NCBI GenBank assembly: GCA_028709705.1
Contig: JAQVWL010000002.1
Span: forward strand, 68,184-132,183
Source of the DNA: Clostridia bacterium
GTDB lineage: Bacteria; Bacillota; Clostridia; Christensenellales; UBA1242
DNA length: 64,000 nt
Direction: 5' to 3'
Shown: positions 2,964 through 51,630 of the stretch, one piece after another
Layout of the letters: the number at the start of each line of letters is the position of its first letter
How positions within the stretch are numbered: position 1 is the stretch's first letter
Made by a program: the position numbers and the translations under genes
Notes under the pieces: generated by a model
Told to the model about the DNA's origin: nothing
Databases searched by the model: none
The model's input: only the letters and a program-made list of their open reading frames with translations

Positions 2964-3335
2964 ATGCCAACAGTTAATCAATTGGTTAGAAAAGGTAGAA
3001 AAACTTTTAAAAGAAAAAGCAAATCACCGCTTCTTGAAAGTAATCCGCAAATGCGTGGAGTTTGTCTTTCTGTTAAAACAACTTCTCCCAAAAAACCTAA
3101 CTCTGCTCTTCGTAAAATTGCCCGTGTGAAATTGTCAAACGGTGCAGAAGCAACTTGCTACATTCCAGGTATTGGGCACAATTTGCAAGAACATAGCGTT
3201 GTGCTTGTTCGTGGCGGAAGAGTAAAAGATTTGCCAGGTGTGAGATATCACATTGTTCGTGGTTCGCTTGATGCGTCAGGTGTTGCAAAACGAAACCAAA
3301 GCAGGTCAAAATATGGTGCCAAAAAACCAAAATAA
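2964..3335 (+). CDS. rpsL: 30S ribosomal protein S12
   Basis: [13 protein letters not shown]... is a canonical S12 N-terminus, with GGAG 7 nt upstream of the ATG at 2964. The start at 2865 in the ORF track is a spurious N-terminal extension. Confidence 0.97.
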
Positions 3336-3405: not shown

Positions 3406-3879
3406 ATGCCAAGAAGAAATAGAGCGGTCAAAAAAGATGTTTTGGCTGACCCAATTCACAATAGCAAACTTTTGACCAAACTTGTTAATCAAGTTATGTT
3501 AGATGGAAAAAAAGGTATTGCACAAGGAATTGTTTATGGCGCTTTTGATTTGATAAAAGAAAAAACAGGAAATGAACCACTTGCTGTGTTTACACAAGCA
3601 CTTGAAAATGTTAAACCCGTTTTGGAAACAAAAGGTCGTAGAGTGGGCGGAGCAACATATCAAGTTCCTATGGAAATAAGACCTGAAAGAAGACAAACAT
3701 TAGGTATTCGTTGGATAGTCAATTTTGCCCGAAAAAGAAATGGCGAAAGAACTATGCAAGAAAAACTTGCTGGCGAGTTGCTTGATGCTTTTAACAACAC
3801 CGGTGCATCAGTAAAGAAAAAAGAAGAAATGCACAGAATGGCGGAAGCGAATAAAGCATTCGCGCACTTCCGCTGGTAA
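3406..3879 (+). CDS. rpsG: 30S ribosomal protein S7
   Basis: [20 protein letters not shown]...KAFAHFRW* is full-length S7, preceded by AAGGAG. Confidence 0.97.
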
Positions 3880-4050
3880 AATTTTCAATTTTTGTGGCGG
3901 TTTTTTGCGTTTCTGCCCACCTTACCTTGACAGGTATGTACCAAAAAGTACACTACCTTAGCCAAGTCAAAGCGGGGCGAGCCTTGAAACCCGCTCACAA
4001 AAATTGAAAATTTAAAGTACGAGAAATAAGTTTTTTATTTAAGCATGTGT
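3871..4050 (+). repeat. Copy 1 of a two-copy structured repeat: an 18-bp perfect terminal inverted repeat closes a ~136-nt imperfect hairpin (3878-4013), followed by a conserved AGTACG tail
   Basis: AAATTTTCAATTTTTGTG (3879-3896) and its exact reverse complement CACAAAAATTGAAAATTT (3996-4013). Apical stem GGTA.GTAC/GTAC..TACC (3933-3957). The same arms and layout recur at 44589-44719. Confidence 0.75.
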
Positions 4051-4057
4051 TTAATTT

Positions 4058-4340
4058 TTACGAAAGTTGGAAATTGCGAAGCCAGCCCACCCAATGCAGA
4101 AGCGGGCTTGATTTTCCAAGACAAAGTCGAAGGAAAATGGGGGATTTGAGTGCCGATAAGCAATGATATTTTGGAGGCGGTGCAGTTTGATTTATTAGCA
4201 AGGGGCAAACGGGGACGCTAGCAACTGACACGGGAGCGACTAGCGTAGGGTCACGTTGGCTCTCAGCCCCTTGACATGAAAGCAAAAGGCGAAAAACTTG
4301 TATTATAAAACCCAACAAAAAACAAATAAAAATCATAATA
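4058..4340. ncRNA. Candidate structured RNA or unclassified G+C-rich island in the rpsG-fusA spacer
   Basis: Hand count gives ~52% G+C over 4081-4260 (63% over 4201-4260), against ~30% in the flanks. Local stems include ACGCTAG(4216-4222)/CTAGCGT(4241-4247) and CAAGGGGC(4199-4206)/GCCCCTTG(4265-4272). There is no credible ORF, and I could not match it to any known RNA family by eye. Confidence 0.3.
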
Positions 4341-4375
4341 AAATACCGCTTATAAAGGCGGGAAAGGAGAAATAA

Positions 4376-6451
4376 ATGGCGATGGAACCATTAAAATTAA
4401 CACGAAATGTCGGTATTATGGCACATATTGATGCCGGAAAAACGACAACAACCGAAAGAATTCTGTTTTACACAGGAAAAAACCACAAAATCGGCGAAGT
4501 GCATGATGGTGCTGCAACTATGGACTGGATGGAACAAGAACAAGAAAGGGGTATAACAATCACTTCCGCTTGCACAACTTGTAATTGGAAAGGTCATAAA
4601 ATTAATATTATAGACACACCGGGGCACGTTGATTTCACAATTGAAGTTGAAAGAAGTTTAAAAGTGCTTGATGGTGCTGTGCTTGTTTTAAGTGCAAGAG
4701 ATAAAGTTCAACCTCAAACTGAAACAGTTTGGCGACAAGCAACAAGATATAAAGTTCCTGCAATTGTTTATATTAACAAAATGGATAGAGATGCGGCAGA
4801 TTTTATGGGTTGCGTTGAGTCAATAAGACTTAGACTTCACACAAAACCTCTTCCTATTCAACTTCCACTTGGTTCTTCAGAAACTTTTTCAGGCATTATT
4901 GACCTTTTGACAATGAAAGCCGAAATATATAAAGATGACCAAGGTGTTAATATTGAAATTATTGACATTCCCGAAGAGTATAAAGCACAAGCAGAAAAAC
5001 TACGCAACGAAATGATTGAATCAGTTGTTGAAACTGATGACGTTTTGCTTGAAAAATACTTTGCTGGTGAAGAAATAGATTTAGAAACAATAAAGAAAGC
5101 AATAAGAAAAGCAACTATTTCAAAACAACTAACTCCTGTTTTGTGCGGTTCTTCTTACAAAAACAAAGGTGTGCAAATGCTTTTGGACGCTATTGTTGAC
5201 TTTTTGCCTTCACCATTAGACATTGACAGCATAAAAGGAACAAACCCCGACACAAACAAAGAAGAAGAAAGAGAAGCAAAAGAAGATGCATATTTTGCAG
5301 GTTTAGCTTTTAAAATTACAACAGACCCGTTTGTTGGAGGCTTGACATTTTTTAGAGTGTACAGCGGACTTTTAAAAGCAGGTTCTTACGTTTACAATTC
5401 TGTAACCGGAAAAACCGAAAGAGTTGGCAGACTTATAAGAATGCACGCAAACACAAGACAAGAAATTTCTGAAGTTGGTGCGGGCGACATTGCTGCAATT
5501 GTTGGGCTTAAAGACACAATCACAGGGCACACACTTTGCGATGCAAAACACCCAATAGTTTTGGAAAGTATGGAATTCCCTGACCCCGTTATTCAACTTG
5601 CTATTGAACCAAAAACAAAAGATATGCAAGAAAAAATGTCATTAGCGCTTGCAAAACTTATGCGTGAAGACCCATCATTTAGAGTTCAAACAGACCAAGA
5701 AACAGGACAAACACTTATATCCGGTATGGGCGAACTTCACCTAGAAATTATTGTTGACAGAATGTTTAGAGAGTTTAAAGTTGAAGCAAATGTTGGAAAA
5801 CCACAAGTTGCTTACAAAGAAGCAATCAAAAACAAAGTCAAAGCAGAAGGAAAATTTATTAGACAAAGTGGCGGAAAAGGTCAATATGGACATTGTCAAA
5901 TTGAAATGGAACCACTTCCACAAGGTCAAGGCTATGAATTTGTTGACAAAACTGTTGGCGGTTCAATTCCAAAAGAATATATTCAACCAATAAACAACGG
6001 AATACAAGAAGCAAGAATGAATGGAATTTTGGCAGGGTATGAAACTGTTGATTTCAAAGTTACAGTTTATGATGGTTCGTTCCACGAAGTTGACTCTTCT
6101 GAAATGGCTTTCAAAATTGCAGGTTCGCTTGCATTTAAAGATGGCTGTGCAAAAGGTGGAGCAGTTTTGTTAGAACCAATTATGGCAGTTCAAGTTGAAC
6201 TTCCAGACGAATATTTGGGAACGGTTATGGGCAATCTTACTTCAAGAAGAGGAATGCTTCAAGGCAACGAAACAAAACCTGGTGTTCAAGTTATCAATGC
6301 AGAAGTTCCTTTGGCGGAAATGTTTGGATATGCAACAGACCTTCGTTCTCAAACACAAGGTCGCGGACAATTTACTATGGAATTTAAAAAATATGCCGAA
6401 GTGCCAAAAAGCATTCAAGAAAAAATTATTGGCGAACGATCAAAGAAATAA
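4376..6451 (+). CDS. fusA: Elongation factor G
   Basis: [23 protein letters not shown] and 691 aa. AAGGAG lies upstream, preceded by the small hairpin CCGC(4346-4349)/GCGG(4358-4361). Confidence 0.97.
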
Positions 6452-6579: not shown

Positions 6580-7770
6580 ATGGCAAAGGAAAAATTTGAC
6601 AGATCCAAGGCACATGTTAACATTGGAACAATCGGACATGTTGACCATGGTAAAACCACACTTACTGCCGCAATTACTTTCAGATTTGGAAAAGATAAAA
6701 GAAGATATGATGAAATTGATAGCGCACCAGAAGAAAAATCAAGAGGAATAACAATTAACACATCCCATGTTGAATACGAAACAGAAAAAAGGCATTATGC
6801 CCATGTTGACTGTCCAGGACATGCTGACTATGTTAAAAATATGATAACAGGAGCCGCTCAAATGGACGGTGCTATCCTAGTTGTTTCGGCCGCTGATGGC
6901 CCAATGCCTCAAACAAGAGAACACATTTTGCTTGCTCGTCAGGTTGGAGTTCCATACATTGTTGTATTTATGAACAAATGTGACCAAGTTGATGATGAAG
7001 AATTGCTTGAACTTGTTGAAATGGAAATTCGTGACCTATTAACAGAATACAATTTCCCAGGGGATAAAACTCCAATAATTAGAGGTTCAGCTTTGAAAGC
7101 TCTTGAAGCACTTCAAAACGGAAAAAATGACGATTCATCAATTAAAGCAATCGACGAATTGATGGCAGCTGTTGACTCTTACATTCCAGAACCAGAAAGA
7201 CAAACCGACAAACCTTTCTTAATGCCAGTTGAAGACGTTTTCACAATCACAGGTCGTGGAACAGTTGCAACAGGAAGAGTAGAAAGAGGTATTGTTAAAA
7301 TTAACGAAACCGTTGAAATCGTTGGAATGGGTTCAAACAAACAAACAGTAGTTACTGGCGTTGAAATGTTTAGAAAACTTCTTGACGAAGCAAGAGCAGG
7401 AGACAATGTTGGCCTATTACTCCGTGGAATTCAAAGAACAGATATCGAAAGAGGTCAAGTTATTTGCAAACCAGGAACAATTAAACCTCACACAAAATAC
7501 ACTGCACAAGTTTACGTTCTAACAAAAGAAGAAGGCGGACGTCACACACCATTCTTTAATGGTTACAGACCACAATTCTATTTTAGAACAACAGACGTAA
7601 CAGGAACAATTGATTTGCCAGCAGGCGTTGAAATGGTTATGCCAGGAGATAACATCACAATGACAATCAACCTTATCACTCCAATCGCTATTGAACAAGG
7701 TCTTCGCTTTGCTATTCGTGAAGGCGGAAGAACTGTTGGTTCTGGCGTTGTTGCAACAATCATTGAATAA
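6580..7770 (+). CDS. tuf: Elongation factor Tu
   Basis: [33 protein letters not shown]..., 396 aa. Confidence 0.98.
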
Positions 7771-14520: not shown

Positions 14521-14814
14521 AAAATAACTATATTTTTGTGTATAACTAAAATTTTAAGATTTGAAAAAATAAATAAGAAAATTCTAACTTCATTAAAGCA
14601 ATCAAACGCATTTAATTTTAATTGTGGTTTTTTTTATTTTTATAATTTCAATTTGGGAAGTATAACGCATAAACCAAAATTTAATTTTTGTTTATTTATT
14701 TTTTTTAATTATTATAATTATTAGAAAATTAAATTTAATAAAAAATTTTTATTTTTATTTTTTATATTAACTAATTAATTTTTTATAATTTAAAAAAATG
14801 TTTGTTTACAAAAT

Positions 14815-14830
14815 TGTTTCACGTGAAACA
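14815..14830. promoter_or_regulatory. parS site 1 (TGTTTCACGTGAAACA)
   Basis: A perfect 16-bp palindrome matching the Firmicutes parS consensus TGTTNCACGTGAAACA. Confidence 0.9.
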
Positions 14831-14870
14831 CATAATGCAATACATTGCTTTATAAATAAAGAAGCTAAAT

Positions 14871-14886
14871 TGTTTCACGTGGAACA
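14871..14886. promoter_or_regulatory. parS site 2 (TGTTTCACGTGGAACA)
   Basis: One mismatch from the palindrome, and the same family as sites 1 and 3. Confidence 0.85.
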
Positions 14887-14908
14887 ATTTAAAGAGTTTG
14901 TGTAAAAA

Positions 14909-14924
14909 TGTTTCACGTGAAACA
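14909..14924. promoter_or_regulatory. parS site 3 (TGTTTCACGTGAAACA)
   Basis: A perfect 16-bp parS palindrome, 45 nt downstream of the parB stop. Confidence 0.9.
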
Positions 14925-42661: not shown

Positions 42662-44590
42662 ATGTCAAACAAAATTAGCAATTTTTTTGGTTTAATCTTT
42701 ATGTCAATAATAGCGGGAATAATTATTTTTGCTATTATTTTTTCTTATGTGTTTCCGACAGCACCCGTACCGATTGAAGATAATAGTGCAGAATACAATA
42801 TTGGTGAATACACAACCAGCATAACAGTCAACCAAAACAATACTCTATCAGTGAATGAAACAATAAAAGTAAATTTTTTAGTTGCTAGTCATGGCATTTT
42901 TAGGGCATTGCCAACCATAAACGAAGTAAAAAATGTTGATGGCGAAGGAAATGTTATAAGTTCAAAAAAATTTAGAGTTAACTACACAAACATAACGGTC
43001 GACAAAACATTTGATACATACACCGAAAATGACTTCTTATTTATTCAAATAGGTAGTCAATATTCATACGCCCAAGCAGAAGAAACATATGTTTTGTCAT
43101 ACATTGTGGAACTAGACAGCAGATACGCCGACTATAACCAATTTTATTACAATATTTTAGGCAATTTATGGGATACGACAATATCAGATTTTACAGCAAT
43201 AATAACCTTTCCAACACCAGTTGATGCAAGCGCTCCCCTAACCGAAATTTATGTAGGCGAATATGGAAGTACAACACAAATTGATGGAGACTGGACTGAA
43301 AACAACACAGTTTTAACAATTACCCATTCAATTTTGGCGGTTGGCGAAGGAATAACGGTTCTTGTAAACTTGCAAGAGGGCTTTTTTACCGCACCTTATC
43401 CACATCTACTTGACATTTTTATGTTAGTTTTAATTGTTATTTTTGCAATAATTGCGATTGTTTTATACAAAAAAACAAGCAACAAAAAAATGCTTGTTCC
43501 TGTGGTGCAATTTAGTGTAAACAAAAAATTTACATCAGCAGATGTTGGATATATTATTGACAAAACTGTTGATAACAAAGACATTGCGTCGCTCATAATT
43601 TTATGGGCTCAAAAAGGCTATTTGGAAATTATTGAAGAAAAGAAAAAAACATTTTTAAGAAAATTGAAAAATGCTGACAACGATATGAAGCAATATGAAA
43701 AAACCTTGTTTGAAGCGATTTTCGGCAACCAAGACAAAAAAATTGATATATCAAAAATAGGTGAAAAGATTTTATCAACAATCCAAACAACAAAAACCTC
43801 AATAAAAATTGAAAATGAAAAAGCATTTAGTACAAAAGCGGAACTAGCACGAAGTGCGATAATAATAATTATGGGGATTTTGTTTGGTGTGGTCTTATTT
43901 GCAATAAATTATCAAAATGTAAACACTTTTTTCACATACTTATCTGTATTTGTAGCGATTGCTATTGTGGTTTCATTATTTGTTTGGTCCAAAAAGCAAG
44001 ATATGAAAGATATTATAAACGCCAAAAACAAATTTTATAGCAAAGTTTCCACCCTTATTCTACTTGCTGGCATATTTGTTTTTGTATTTTTCTCTTACGA
44101 CAAAATTTGCGACATTTTTTTCACAAGTTTTATTGTTTTTGCGGAACTAATATTTACTATTTATTTATTATCAAAATTTAACATAAGAACAAATGATGGA
44201 ATTGCTGATATGGGCGATATTGTTGGTTTAAAAAATTTTATAGAAGTAACCGAAAAAGATCGCCTAGAACTTTTGGCAAAAGAAAACCCAACAATGTTTT
44301 TTGACATTATGCCTTATGCCTATGTGCTTGGCGTATATGAAGAATGGTGCAAAAAATTTGAAAATATAGTAATAGAAACACCAACTTGGTATGTGGGAAA
44401 CAATCTAACATTCAACTATTTGCTTATGCTAAATATTATGCACAGTACAACAAACTCATTTTTGCAAGCAGTAAACACAGCACAATTTGCAAAAATGGCA
44501 AGCACAGTAACTTCAAACAAAACTTTTGGCGGTTCTGGCGGAGGTTTTAGTGGCGGGGGTTTTGGTGGTGGCGGTGGCGGTCGCTGGTAA
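42662..44590 (+). CDS. DUF2207-like membrane protein with a glycine-rich C-terminal tail
   Basis: 642 aa with an N-terminal TM helix, an extracellular domain, multiple TM helices and the tail GGSGGGFSGGGFGGGGGGRW*. It is adjacent to lemA, which is the usual pairing. Confidence 0.7.
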   Translation: MSNKISNFFGLIFMSIIAGIIIFAIIFSYVFPTAPVPIEDNSAEYNIGEYTTSITVNQNNTLSVNETIKVNFLVASHGIFRALPTINEVKNVDGEGNVISSKKFRVNYTNITVDKTFDTYTENDFLFIQIGSQYSYAQAEETYVLSYIVELDSRYADYNQFYYNILGNLWDTTISDFTAIITFPTPVDASAPLTEIYVGEYGSTTQIDGDWTENNTVLTITHSILAVGEGITVLVNLQEGFFTAPYPHLLDIFMLVLIVIFAIIAIVLYKKTSNKKMLVPVVQFSVNKKFTSADVGYIIDKTVDNKDIASLIILWAQKGYLEIIEEKKKTFLRKLKNADNDMKQYEKTLFEAIFGNQDKKIDISKIGEKILSTIQTTKTSIKIENEKAFSTKAELARSAIIIIMGILFGVVLFAINYQNVNTFFTYLSVFVAIAIVVSLFVWSKKQDMKDIINAKNKFYSKVSTLILLAGIFVFVFFSYDKICDIFFTSFIVFAELIFTIYLLSKFNIRTNDGIADMGDIVGLKNFIEVTEKDRLELLAKENPTMFFDIMPYAYVLGVYEEWCKKFENIVIETPTWYVGNNLTFNYLLMLNIMHSTTNSFLQAVNTAQFAKMASTVTSNKTFGGSGGGFSGGGFGGGGGGRW

Positions 44591-44750
44591 ATTTTCAATT
44601 TTTGTGGAAATCTTTGAACTTTCTGGCAAAATTTTAAGACAGGGCAGTACCGGAAGTACAGCCCGTGCCTAAAAATTTGTGCCGAGCGTCCAAACCTTTC
44701 TCACAAAAATTGAAAATTTGCAGTACGCAAGATAAATTTTCTACTTAATT
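44582..44750 (+). repeat. Copy 2 of the structured repeat (hairpin 44589-44719 plus AGTACG tail)
   Basis: It has the identical 18-nt arms (44589-44606 and 44702-44719). The apical stem is GGGC.GTAC-CGGAA-GTAC.GCCC (44642-44664). As in copy 1, it is preceded by CGCTGGTAA. Confidence 0.75.
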
Positions 44751-49854: not shown

Positions 49855-51630
49855 ATGTGTGGAATTTTTGGATACATAGGTCAGTCTGGCGGCATAAACA
49901 CTCTAATCCAAGGACTAAAAAGTTTAGAATACCGAGGATATGATTCAGCTGGATTGGCGTATTTAGACAAAAGAAAAGAATTTGTAGTTATTAAACGAAG
50001 CGGAAAAGTAAAAGAATTAGAAAGTTGCGTAAGCGTTGAAGAAAAATTTGAAGTTGGTATTGCTCATACCAGATGGGCAACGCATGGTGTGGCAAGCGAA
50101 ACCAACGCTCACCCGCATATCAGTTATGGCAAAAAATTTTGCTTGGTACATAATGGAATAGTAGAAAATTATTTAGAATTAAAGGAAAAATATTTAAAAA
50201 ATATTTCAATAAAATCCGAAACAGACACAGAAATTGTGGTGCATTTGTTAGAAAAATTTTATAACAATAATATTTTTGAAACAATAAAAACAGTTTGCAA
50301 AAAAATCCAAGGCTCTTATGCTCTTGCAATAATAACAAAAGAACACCCCGACAAATTATTTTTGGCAAAAAAATCTAGCCCTTTGATGTTTGGGCAAAGC
50401 AAAAATGGAATATTCTTTTCAAGCGATGTCAACACATTAAGTCAATTTTGCCAAAATTTTTATATTATGGAAGATGAAGAATTTGCTTGCTTGCAAAAAA
50501 ACAATTTTTTTGTGTTTAATCAAAATAATACCAGCATAACAAAAAAATCAAATAGTTTTTTGACAAACAACCAAAACAAAAAAAATGTTGAATGTTATAT
50601 GGAGCAAGAAATTTTGGAATCTCCGATTGCAATAAAAAAAACCATAAAAAGTTTTGAAAATCAATACAAAAAAATACCAAAAAATTTTTTTAAAAAAACA
50701 AAAAACATTTATTTGGTCGGTTGTGGAACAGCATATCATTCTTGTCTTGTTGGAAAAAAATATTTACAAAATTGTTATAAAGTTCCAATTTTGACAGAAA
50801 TTGCCAGCGAGTTTATTTATTCTAACCTTTTAATTAACGAAAACACACTTTGTATATTCACTTCACAAAGTGGCGAAACCGCAGACACATTATTGGCATT
50901 AAAACTTGCAAAACAAAAAGGTGCAAAAATTTTGGCAATTACAAACAACGCTTCAAGTACAATTACATTTGAAAGCAAATATTCAATAGTTATGGATGCG
51001 GGTTGGGAAAAGGCAGTTGCTTCCACAAAAGCGTATGTTTGCCAAATTGCTGTTTTTTATTTGTTATCTTACTATTTGCTTGAAAAAAAAGAATTTGCAA
51101 AACAAAACTTGGATATTTTAATAAAAAAAATGTTGATGTTGACCAATAACAAATGGGCAAAATGCACATCAAAAATTATTCCCAAATACAAAAAAATAAT
51201 TTTTATTGGCAGGCAGTTAAGTTTTATTTCAGCAATGGAAGCCTCTTTAAAATTAAAAGAGGTTACATATATAAACAGCATTGCTTGTGCAAGCGGAGAA
51301 TTAAAGCACGGAACACTAGCCCTTGTGGATAAAGACACACTTATAATTGCAATTTTATGTGAAAAGGAATTGATTGACAAAAATTTAAGTACAATGAAAG
51401 AAATATCTGCAAGAGATGGAAATTTGCTTATACTTTCGCCTTTTAAGTCAAATATAAATTATCACTGCAATGGAAAAATAACAAACTTACTTTTGCCCGA
51501 AGTGCAAGATGAGTTGTACCCAGTTTTAAGTATAATACCTTTGCAAAAACTTGCTTGCGAACTTAGCAAAAAATTGGGATTTGACCCCGATATGCCCAAA
51601 AATCTTTCAAAAAGTGTAACAGTTGAATAG
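49855..51630 (+). CDS. glmS: Glutamine--fructose-6-phosphate aminotransferase
   Basis: MCGIFGYIG N-terminal nucleophile, SIS domains and C-terminal KSVTVE*. Confidence 0.95.
   Translation: MCGIFGYIGQSGGINTLIQGLKSLEYRGYDSAGLAYLDKRKEFVVIKRSGKVKELESCVSVEEKFEVGIAHTRWATHGVASETNAHPHISYGKKFCLVHNGIVENYLELKEKYLKNISIKSETDTEIVVHLLEKFYNNNIFETIKTVCKKIQGSYALAIITKEHPDKLFLAKKSSPLMFGQSKNGIFFSSDVNTLSQFCQNFYIMEDEEFACLQKNNFFVFNQNNTSITKKSNSFLTNNQNKKNVECYMEQEILESPIAIKKTIKSFENQYKKIPKNFFKKTKNIYLVGCGTAYHSCLVGKKYLQNCYKVPILTEIASEFIYSNLLINENTLCIFTSQSGETADTLLALKLAKQKGAKILAITNNASSTITFESKYSIVMDAGWEKAVASTKAYVCQIAVFYLLSYYLLEKKEFAKQNLDILIKKMLMLTNNKWAKCTSKIIPKYKKIIFIGRQLSFISAMEASLKLKEVTYINSIACASGELKHGTLALVDKDTLIIAILCEKELIDKNLSTMKEISARDGNLLILSPFKSNINYHCNGKITNLLLPEVQDELYPVLSIIPLQKLACELSKKLGFDPDMPKNLSKSVTVE

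Follow-up and report, generated by a model that had tools for sequence, protein, structure and literature searches.

The reading we favour for the G+C-rich island that lies between rpsG and fusA in this clostridial str operon, and in which we place somewhat more than even confidence, is that of a mosaic of lineage-specific repeat modules lodged in an insertion-prone spacer and co-transcribed with the operon, any function of which would be of the REP, BIME or BOX kind. In the proposed sequence of events, two modules, A (4073-4197) and B (4186-4286), would have been inserted beside a third, palindromic repeat (3879-4042), the rpsG-fusA spacer of this uncultured Clostridia clade being one that appears to tolerate and to accumulate insertions (all positions refer to the window, that is, to the whole stretch of 64,000 nucleotides that was analysed). 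The modules are probably carried along passively when the highly expressed str operon is transcribed into mRNA, the rpsG-fusA spacer being free of terminator-like sites. Their stable hairpins would protect or process the adjoining mRNA segments, thereby loosening the coupling between the synthesis of S7 and that of EF-G; such an effect inside operons, of the REP, BIME or BOX type, is suggested by analogy with these elements. The absence of the island from relatives, the variability of module A, the recurrence of its parts, an uncompensated SNP and the lack of RNA from the abundant relatives of its core are more in keeping with repeated DNA modules than with a dedicated gene for a structured RNA, as the initial annotation had put forward.

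The genes of the operon are read from their ORFs: rpsL (2964-3335), rpsG (3406-3879, plus strand, the 5' neighbour of the spacer, identified as ribosomal protein S7 from its translation), fusA (4376-6451, plus strand, elongation factor G, the 3' neighbour) and tuf (6580-7770). A check of the gene coordinates bears out the abnormally long gap that had been noticed between rpsG and fusA (496 nt, 3880-4375), and a recount of the G+C content agrees with the earlier hand count, giving 52.2% for 4081-4260 and 63.3% for 4201-4260, where the window as a whole has 31.0%. A content of at least 47% over 180 nt is reached at only five places in the 64 kb, among which the rpsG-fusA island ties for the top. 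The 3' end of the spacer (4287-4375, plus strand) is AT-rich and is taken as ancestral, since here alone does the spacer weakly match that of a relative; it holds a small hairpin (CCGC 4346-4349 / GCGG 4358-4361) and the fusA ribosome-binding site GGAG (4366-4369). This 4-bp G+C hairpin directly adjoins the GAAAGGAGAAA ribosome-binding block 5' of fusA (4346-4372), and the spacers of three relatives (L009, L010 and L013) end with a comparable arrangement of hairpin and ribosome-binding site. All that Tandem Repeats Finder detected was a repeat of 11 nt, AT-rich, at 4317-4343; inside the island there was no family of direct repeats. As to transcription signals, a single strong promoter match was found upstream of the operon, at 2725-2753, before rpsL; a consensus scan found no sigma-70 promoter 5' of module A, no terminator-like site is present on the plus strand over 3880-4375, and neither strand has a terminator after the island.

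The palindromic repeat that precedes the island starts at the rpsG stop codon and extends over 3879-4042, with the terminal inverted repeats AAATTTTCAATTTTTGTG / CACAAAAATTGAAAATTT. Comparison of the window with itself located a second copy at 44589-44748, so that the "repeat copy 1" of the initial annotation is genuine. This repeat lies outside the island, being nevertheless part of the same spacer mosaic, and local alignment between the two is no better than with shuffled sequences. Both copies share the sequence CGCTGGTAA, at 3871-3897 and 44581-44607, which comprises the final Arg and Trp codons together with the stop codon of rpsG in the first case and of a gene for a 642-aa membrane protein in the second; the palindromic repeat may thereby supply or overlap the C-terminal codons of the upstream gene.

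The island itself is composite, and its two modules behave differently when their folding is compared with that of dinucleotide shuffles (z-scores). Module B, an extended imperfect hairpin at 4186-4286 that corresponds to the inverted repeat I1, is stabler than its shuffles, with a z-score of -3.03 and one equally good fold among 200 shuffles. The folding of module A is ordinary (4063-4197; z -0.34 on the plus strand and -1.63 on the minus strand), as is that of the island as a whole (4060-4290; z -0.22 and -0.64, respectively). The full spacer gives z-scores of -4.0 and -4.7, which are strong because of the palindromic repeat at 3879-4042. The nested complementary segments described in the initial annotation do exist and are non-random, three of their six coordinate pairs being off by one: the outer stem of module B is formed by CAAGGGGC at 4199-4206 with GCCCCTTG at 4266-4273, the inner stem by ACGCTAG at 4215-4221 with CTAGCGT at 4240-4246, and the small separate pair by AGCCC at 4084-4088 with GGGCT at 4104-4108. 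Since the nested stems all fall within module B, they describe one long hairpin and not a complex fold of 280 nt. Module A, which is not palindromic, can be divided into three parts: a 5' part (A1, 4073-4131), extra copies of which occur with other flanks and which holds GATTTTCC (4110-4117), the 5' arm of a small stem whose tip varies; a 40-nt core, GGAAAATGGGGGATTTGAGTGCCGATAAGCAATGATATTTTGGAGG (A2, 4132-4176), near-identical short copies of which are far commoner than the genome; and a tail (4177-4197) that is kept in more diverged, low-depth homologues. A and B are each present as a single copy in the 64-kb window.

The comparison of the spacer in relatives, which had been suggested as a means of recognising an insertion, covered 80 loci recovered with S7 from uncultured Clostridia of the Christensenellales type, the best of which was 86% identical. 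No homologue of the island was found by blastn and nhmmer in the rpsG-fusA spacer of any of the 80 loci; only the last ~75 nt 5' of fusA match weakly in one locus (L009, 72% over 83 nt, E 0.004). The FusA protein of the window is a singleton whose nearest proteins are 86-87% identical, and the five loci that belong to these nearest relatives have AT-rich spacers of ~235 nt, dissimilar to 4060-4290; exact protein look-up returned no record for the S7, S12 and EF-Tu of the window. Long spacers are common in the clade. The close set comprises 32 loci whose FusA N-terminus is 78% or more identical; its spacers range from 37 to 1039 nt around a median of 410 nt, 22 of the 32 reaching at least 200 nt, and one further locus has a spacer of 1146 nt; the median falls to 21 nt in the distant set of 41 relatives. 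These long spacers differ between sub-lineages, in which they are made of tandem or palindromic repeats or contain small ORFs, and they are mutually unrelated. The absence of the island from every relative, together with long and varied spacers across the clade, therefore indicates a lineage-specific insertion, confined to the lineage of the window, in a spacer that accumulates insertions. An S7 leader or attenuator would be expected to recur at this position of the str operon in related genomes, and the comparison found no such recurrence; nor was a terminator hairpin with a U-tract found before fusA. Small plus-strand ORFs of 85-202 aa occupy the spacers of nine loci (L009, L015, L019, L020, L021, L028, L032, L033 and L069); at the DNA level only those of L015 and L020 are alike, and some encode products that are rich in charged residues or predicted to form a coiled coil.

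The island also turns over between strains. In runs X3, X6 and X7, strains that are ~99% identical to the window through rpsG and the palindromic repeat become divergent after 4020. The major strain of X3 illustrates this turnover: its rpsG is 0.8% different, its sequence is unalignable from 4021 to about 4133, no stretch of 80% likeness or more being present over about 4031-4125, and its core differs at 5 of 60 positions. The strain of X4 differs by ~1% in the island against ~0.25% over 20 kb, and its SNP at 4205 (G>T) converts a G-C pair of the outer stem of module B into a U-C mismatch that is left uncompensated. The strains of X2 and X3 share a 1-nt deletion at 4248. They also carry a 15-nt insertion, AAATAAAAATCATAA, after 4323, a tandem duplication within the AT-rich tail that precedes the fusA ribosome-binding site.

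The recurrence of the modules was followed in the four DNA runs that contain the organism, namely X1 from landfill, X2 and X3 from compost and X4 from wastewater, by placing metagenome contigs at 80-85% likeness and expressing depth as the summed word depth of the contigs. X1 contains an exact contig of 431 nt and is probably the run from which the window derives. In all four runs A1, A2 and B each recur at separate multiples of the genome depth and with varied flanks. The excess is most pronounced for the core (4132-4176), which reaches, at 80% likeness over 4150-4160, a depth of 2286 in X4, 852 in X1 and 249 in X2, where the organism's own genome stands at 5.3, 7.1 and about 15, respectively, and, over 4145-4163, a depth of 65 in X3, where the genome stands at about 11. 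The ratio of core to genome thus ranges from ~6 to ~430 across the runs, with values of about 15 in X2 and about 6 in X3 within one study. Because this ratio varies between runs, the bulk of the core copies is not a fixed chromosomal repeat of the organism; most of them belong to co-occurring relatives, or to a replicon or array. The abundant copies consist solely of 31-41-nt unitigs, mostly with C at 4164, and none is 100% identical to the window. Copies of A1 (4084-4116) are found with different flanks in X1, X2 and X4 at 1.5-30 times the genome depth, and extra copies of B (4205-4237) at 4-11 times, with AT-rich, promoter-like DNA 5' of them. Both parts also occur head to tail: one contig carries A1 twice, 4115 being joined to 4075 via 16 nt with a period of 57 nt, and in the core of B 4238 is joined to 4208 via 12 nt, TTAGCAAAGGTC, with a period of 43 nt. 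Diverged homologues of low depth pass into unrelated AT-rich DNA after 4193/4197 (X1, X4 and X11), and other homologues carry a different sequence 5' of 4075, 4100, 4132 or 4199. No copy at all is present in X9, X10 and X14, which belong to the same studies and in which the organism is absent, and X11 contains one diverged copy. Rearrangement between strains and relatives on the one side and a modular and tandem arrangement on the other, two features of a repeat class, are thus both found here, and they suggest that the modules are mobile.

Some of the homologues keep their pairing despite sequence changes. A homologue of A retains GGCTTGATTTTCC and has its apical hairpin swapped, GTTGGCAGAGCCAAC replacing AAGACAAAGTCGAA, and a homologue of B has the pair GTCAAC/GTTGAC where the window has GCAAAC/GTTGGC, which amounts, by eye, to one double compensatory change. 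Such pairing would be preserved by an RNA and by a DNA palindrome alike. A universal, rRNA-like sequence was considered as the cause of the depth spike and discarded, since there is no match in E. coli or Rfam and no depth in the organism-free runs. Exact-pattern scans for members of the family found none in 185,579 species genomes, in the JGI metagenomes or in IMG/VR, and these negatives are weak because every abundant copy departs from the sequence of the window in at least one unread position; the matches returned by the genome collection are due to chance and lie inside coding genes, as do the three returned by IMG/VR, likewise chance matches in coding sequence.

The island is transcribed. 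In X5, a wastewater metatranscriptome from the same sample as X4, one contig of 180 nt spans 4073-4252 with a single mismatch (the data being unstranded), and this mismatch is the 4205 G>T strain SNP that is also present in the DNA of X4. At 97% likeness, X5 gives a depth of 0 for rpsG and no depth for fusA from 4670 onward; the other organism-specific pieces listed at this likeness within the window's first 20 kb fall only in rpsL and tuf. The abundant relatives of the core, present at ~430 times the genome depth in the DNA of X4, give no RNA contig in X5. The simplest reading is that RNA from 4073-4252 is detectable because the island lies inside the str operon and is transcribed with it, and that its G+C-rich hairpins outlast their AT-rich neighbours or assemble better than they do. 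Several observations weigh against the repeat mosaic that we favour: A and B each have a single copy in the 64 kb, the ratio of core to genome varies between runs, the exact-pattern scans and blastn found no member of the family, module A lacks the palindromic character of typical REP or BOX modules, and the depth of the RNA contig exceeds that of the coding sequences on either side, as it would for a stable functional RNA too.

Could the island be an undescribed structured RNA, either processed as a stable fragment from the str transcript or expressed as a small RNA from a promoter of its own, and in which the hairpin of B and the core of A are functional, for example in the control of EF-G or in trans? 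We consider this unlikely, while giving it a real share of the probability. Parts of the original proposal did hold: neither strand of 4058-4340 has a match in Rfam, whether a sequence of 1401 nt is searched at E<=10 or the island alone (241 nt) with the laxest filters, the hairpin of B is significantly stable (z -3.03), and the RNA contig exists. Furthermore, the island is G+C-rich in an AT-rich genome, the homologue of A keeps a GAUUUUCC/GGAAAAU stem while swapping its tip and that of B keeps its stem through the double change, the 180-nt contig is the longest organism-specific RNA piece listed in the 20 kb where rpsG has a depth of 0, a perfect TATAAT is present on the minus strand near 4303-4308, and a precedent for regulatory RNAs between rpsG and fusA is provided by streptococci and Pelagibacter (PMC2965389, PMC2704228). 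The part that did not hold is structural conservation among homologues, of which none was found: the island is missing from this locus in every relative, module A is hypervariable among near-identical strains and folds no better than its shuffles, and the SNP at 4205 breaks the stem of B without compensation. Moreover, the abundant family members give no RNA where their DNA stands at ~430 times the genome depth, and the RNA evidence consists of a single unstranded contig of depth 5, to which some carry-over of DNA may have contributed. On the preferred reading, the island would have no dedicated function. A decayed or horizontally acquired protein gene, of which the island would be a remnant comparable to the small ORFs in the spacers of relatives, is very improbable in our judgement. 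In its favour are the foreign look of a G+C content of 52%, the plus-strand ORFs of 85-202 aa in the spacers of some nine relatives, the 92-aa minus-strand ORF that stays open at 4058-4336, as had been noted from the start, and a plus-strand ORF of 17 codons that is intact in the variant with C at 4164 and interrupted by TGA in the window. The 92-aa ORF, however, has no ribosome-binding site at the proper spacing, again in agreement with the initial annotation, and no homologue by a word-based search or by phmmer against 1.84 billion representatives; its match in Pfam is sub-threshold (16 bits against a cut-off of 26), and tblastx of the spacer against the spacers of all relatives gives nothing below E 0.26. 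As far as can be tested, the island is non-coding.

The abundance of the core leads to a further possibility, namely that a short, very high-copy repeat with variable flanks, such as that of a CRISPR array or the iterons of a co-occurring plasmid or phage, has its chromosomal look-alike in the 40-nt core. The island would then encode a tracr-like anti-repeat or a decoy RNA, carried on the strongly expressed str operon, or would be a recombination site for that element. The abundant copies occur only as unitigs of 31-41 nt and must therefore branch on both sides, as a short repeat set among unique flanks characteristically does; no copy is identical to the window, as would be predicted for an anti-repeat, they are confined to runs that contain the organism, their abundance of ~6 to ~430 times the genome is that of an extrachromosomal or array-borne sequence, and the copy in the window is transcribed. 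We nevertheless give this reading a slim chance. The 64-kb window contains neither a cas gene nor a CRISPR array (ORFs of at least 200 aa were listed and seven large ones scanned, including one of 1189 aa, all of them housekeeping), A1 and B also have extra and tandem copies, unlike a tracrRNA, the diverged homologues of low depth reach well past the core, both strands lack a terminator after the island, and the phage and plasmid collections and IMG/VR have no match. No origin from a known phage or plasmid was found either, blastn against phages, plasmids and E. coli having returned nothing. Should the core prove to be carried by an array or by a companion replicon, a housekeeping operon would be tied through the island to a system of mobility or defence.

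The mosaic of repeat modules, to which we return as the preferred reading, has its closest likeness in the BOX elements (boxA-boxB(n)-boxC) of Streptococcus pneumoniae and in ERIC, RUP and SPRITE, which are, like the island, short non-coding modules of variable order and number. As proposed for the island, BOX-type repeats form hairpins, sit in the intergenic gaps of operons with which they are co-transcribed, are restricted to lineages and differ between close strains. They have no sequence similarity to the island, whose modules are single-copy in the 64 kb and whose module A is not palindromic, and metagenomes contain the core in much greater and more fluctuating amounts than a chromosomal repeat would give. 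REP, BIME and REPIN elements of Proteobacteria share with the island G+C-rich hairpins between the genes of operons, where they can stabilise the upstream mRNA, and BIME-type clusters are mosaics of REP with other motifs, a likeness to which the significant hairpin of module B adds; these elements are mobilised by RAYT transposases. Module B is ~100 nt long against 35-40 nt for a REP, and the 40-nt core is REP-sized but not palindromic. The STAR elements of Staphylococcus aureus are G+C-rich direct repeats in an AT-rich genome, and their likeness to the island lies in short G+C-rich repeats with variable linkers, tandem and dispersed, in the intergenic regions of a low-G+C Firmicute; their sequence and unit length are other than those of the island. 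On the side of RNA, regulatory RNAs are known from the rpsG-fusA gap of streptococci and Pelagibacter (PMC2965389, PMC2704228), and they resemble the island in their place in the str operon, upstream of fusA, and in being structured. These RNAs show conservation inside their lineages, and that of streptococci has a terminator at its end (PMC2965389, PMC2704228), whereas the island shows neither feature and has no match in Rfam.

If the preferred reading of a repeat mosaic is true, the modules of the island would represent a further, undescribed family of small intergenic repeats in uncultured Clostridia, and the str operon, core and highly expressed as it is, would serve as a clade-wide landing pad for repeats and small accessory genes. 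The island might also be of use as a strain marker. For the annotation of these AT-rich genomes, it would follow as a caution that a G+C-rich intergenic island alone is no sign of a functional RNA.

With regard to the rest of the window, Rfam 15 detects no family at the gathering score in the 64 kb, and ARAGORN finds no tRNA or tmRNA gene. The absence of Rfam families was observed despite the presence of glmS (49855-51630), of the str operon and of the rpmH-rnpA region; neither a glmS ribozyme nor a ribosomal-protein leader was detectable at that score. In run X4, many contigs with unrelated flanks stop at 14813 and at 14924, the depth being raised between the two positions, and the palindromic sites at 14813-14924 appear to be common to other organisms of the X4 sample.
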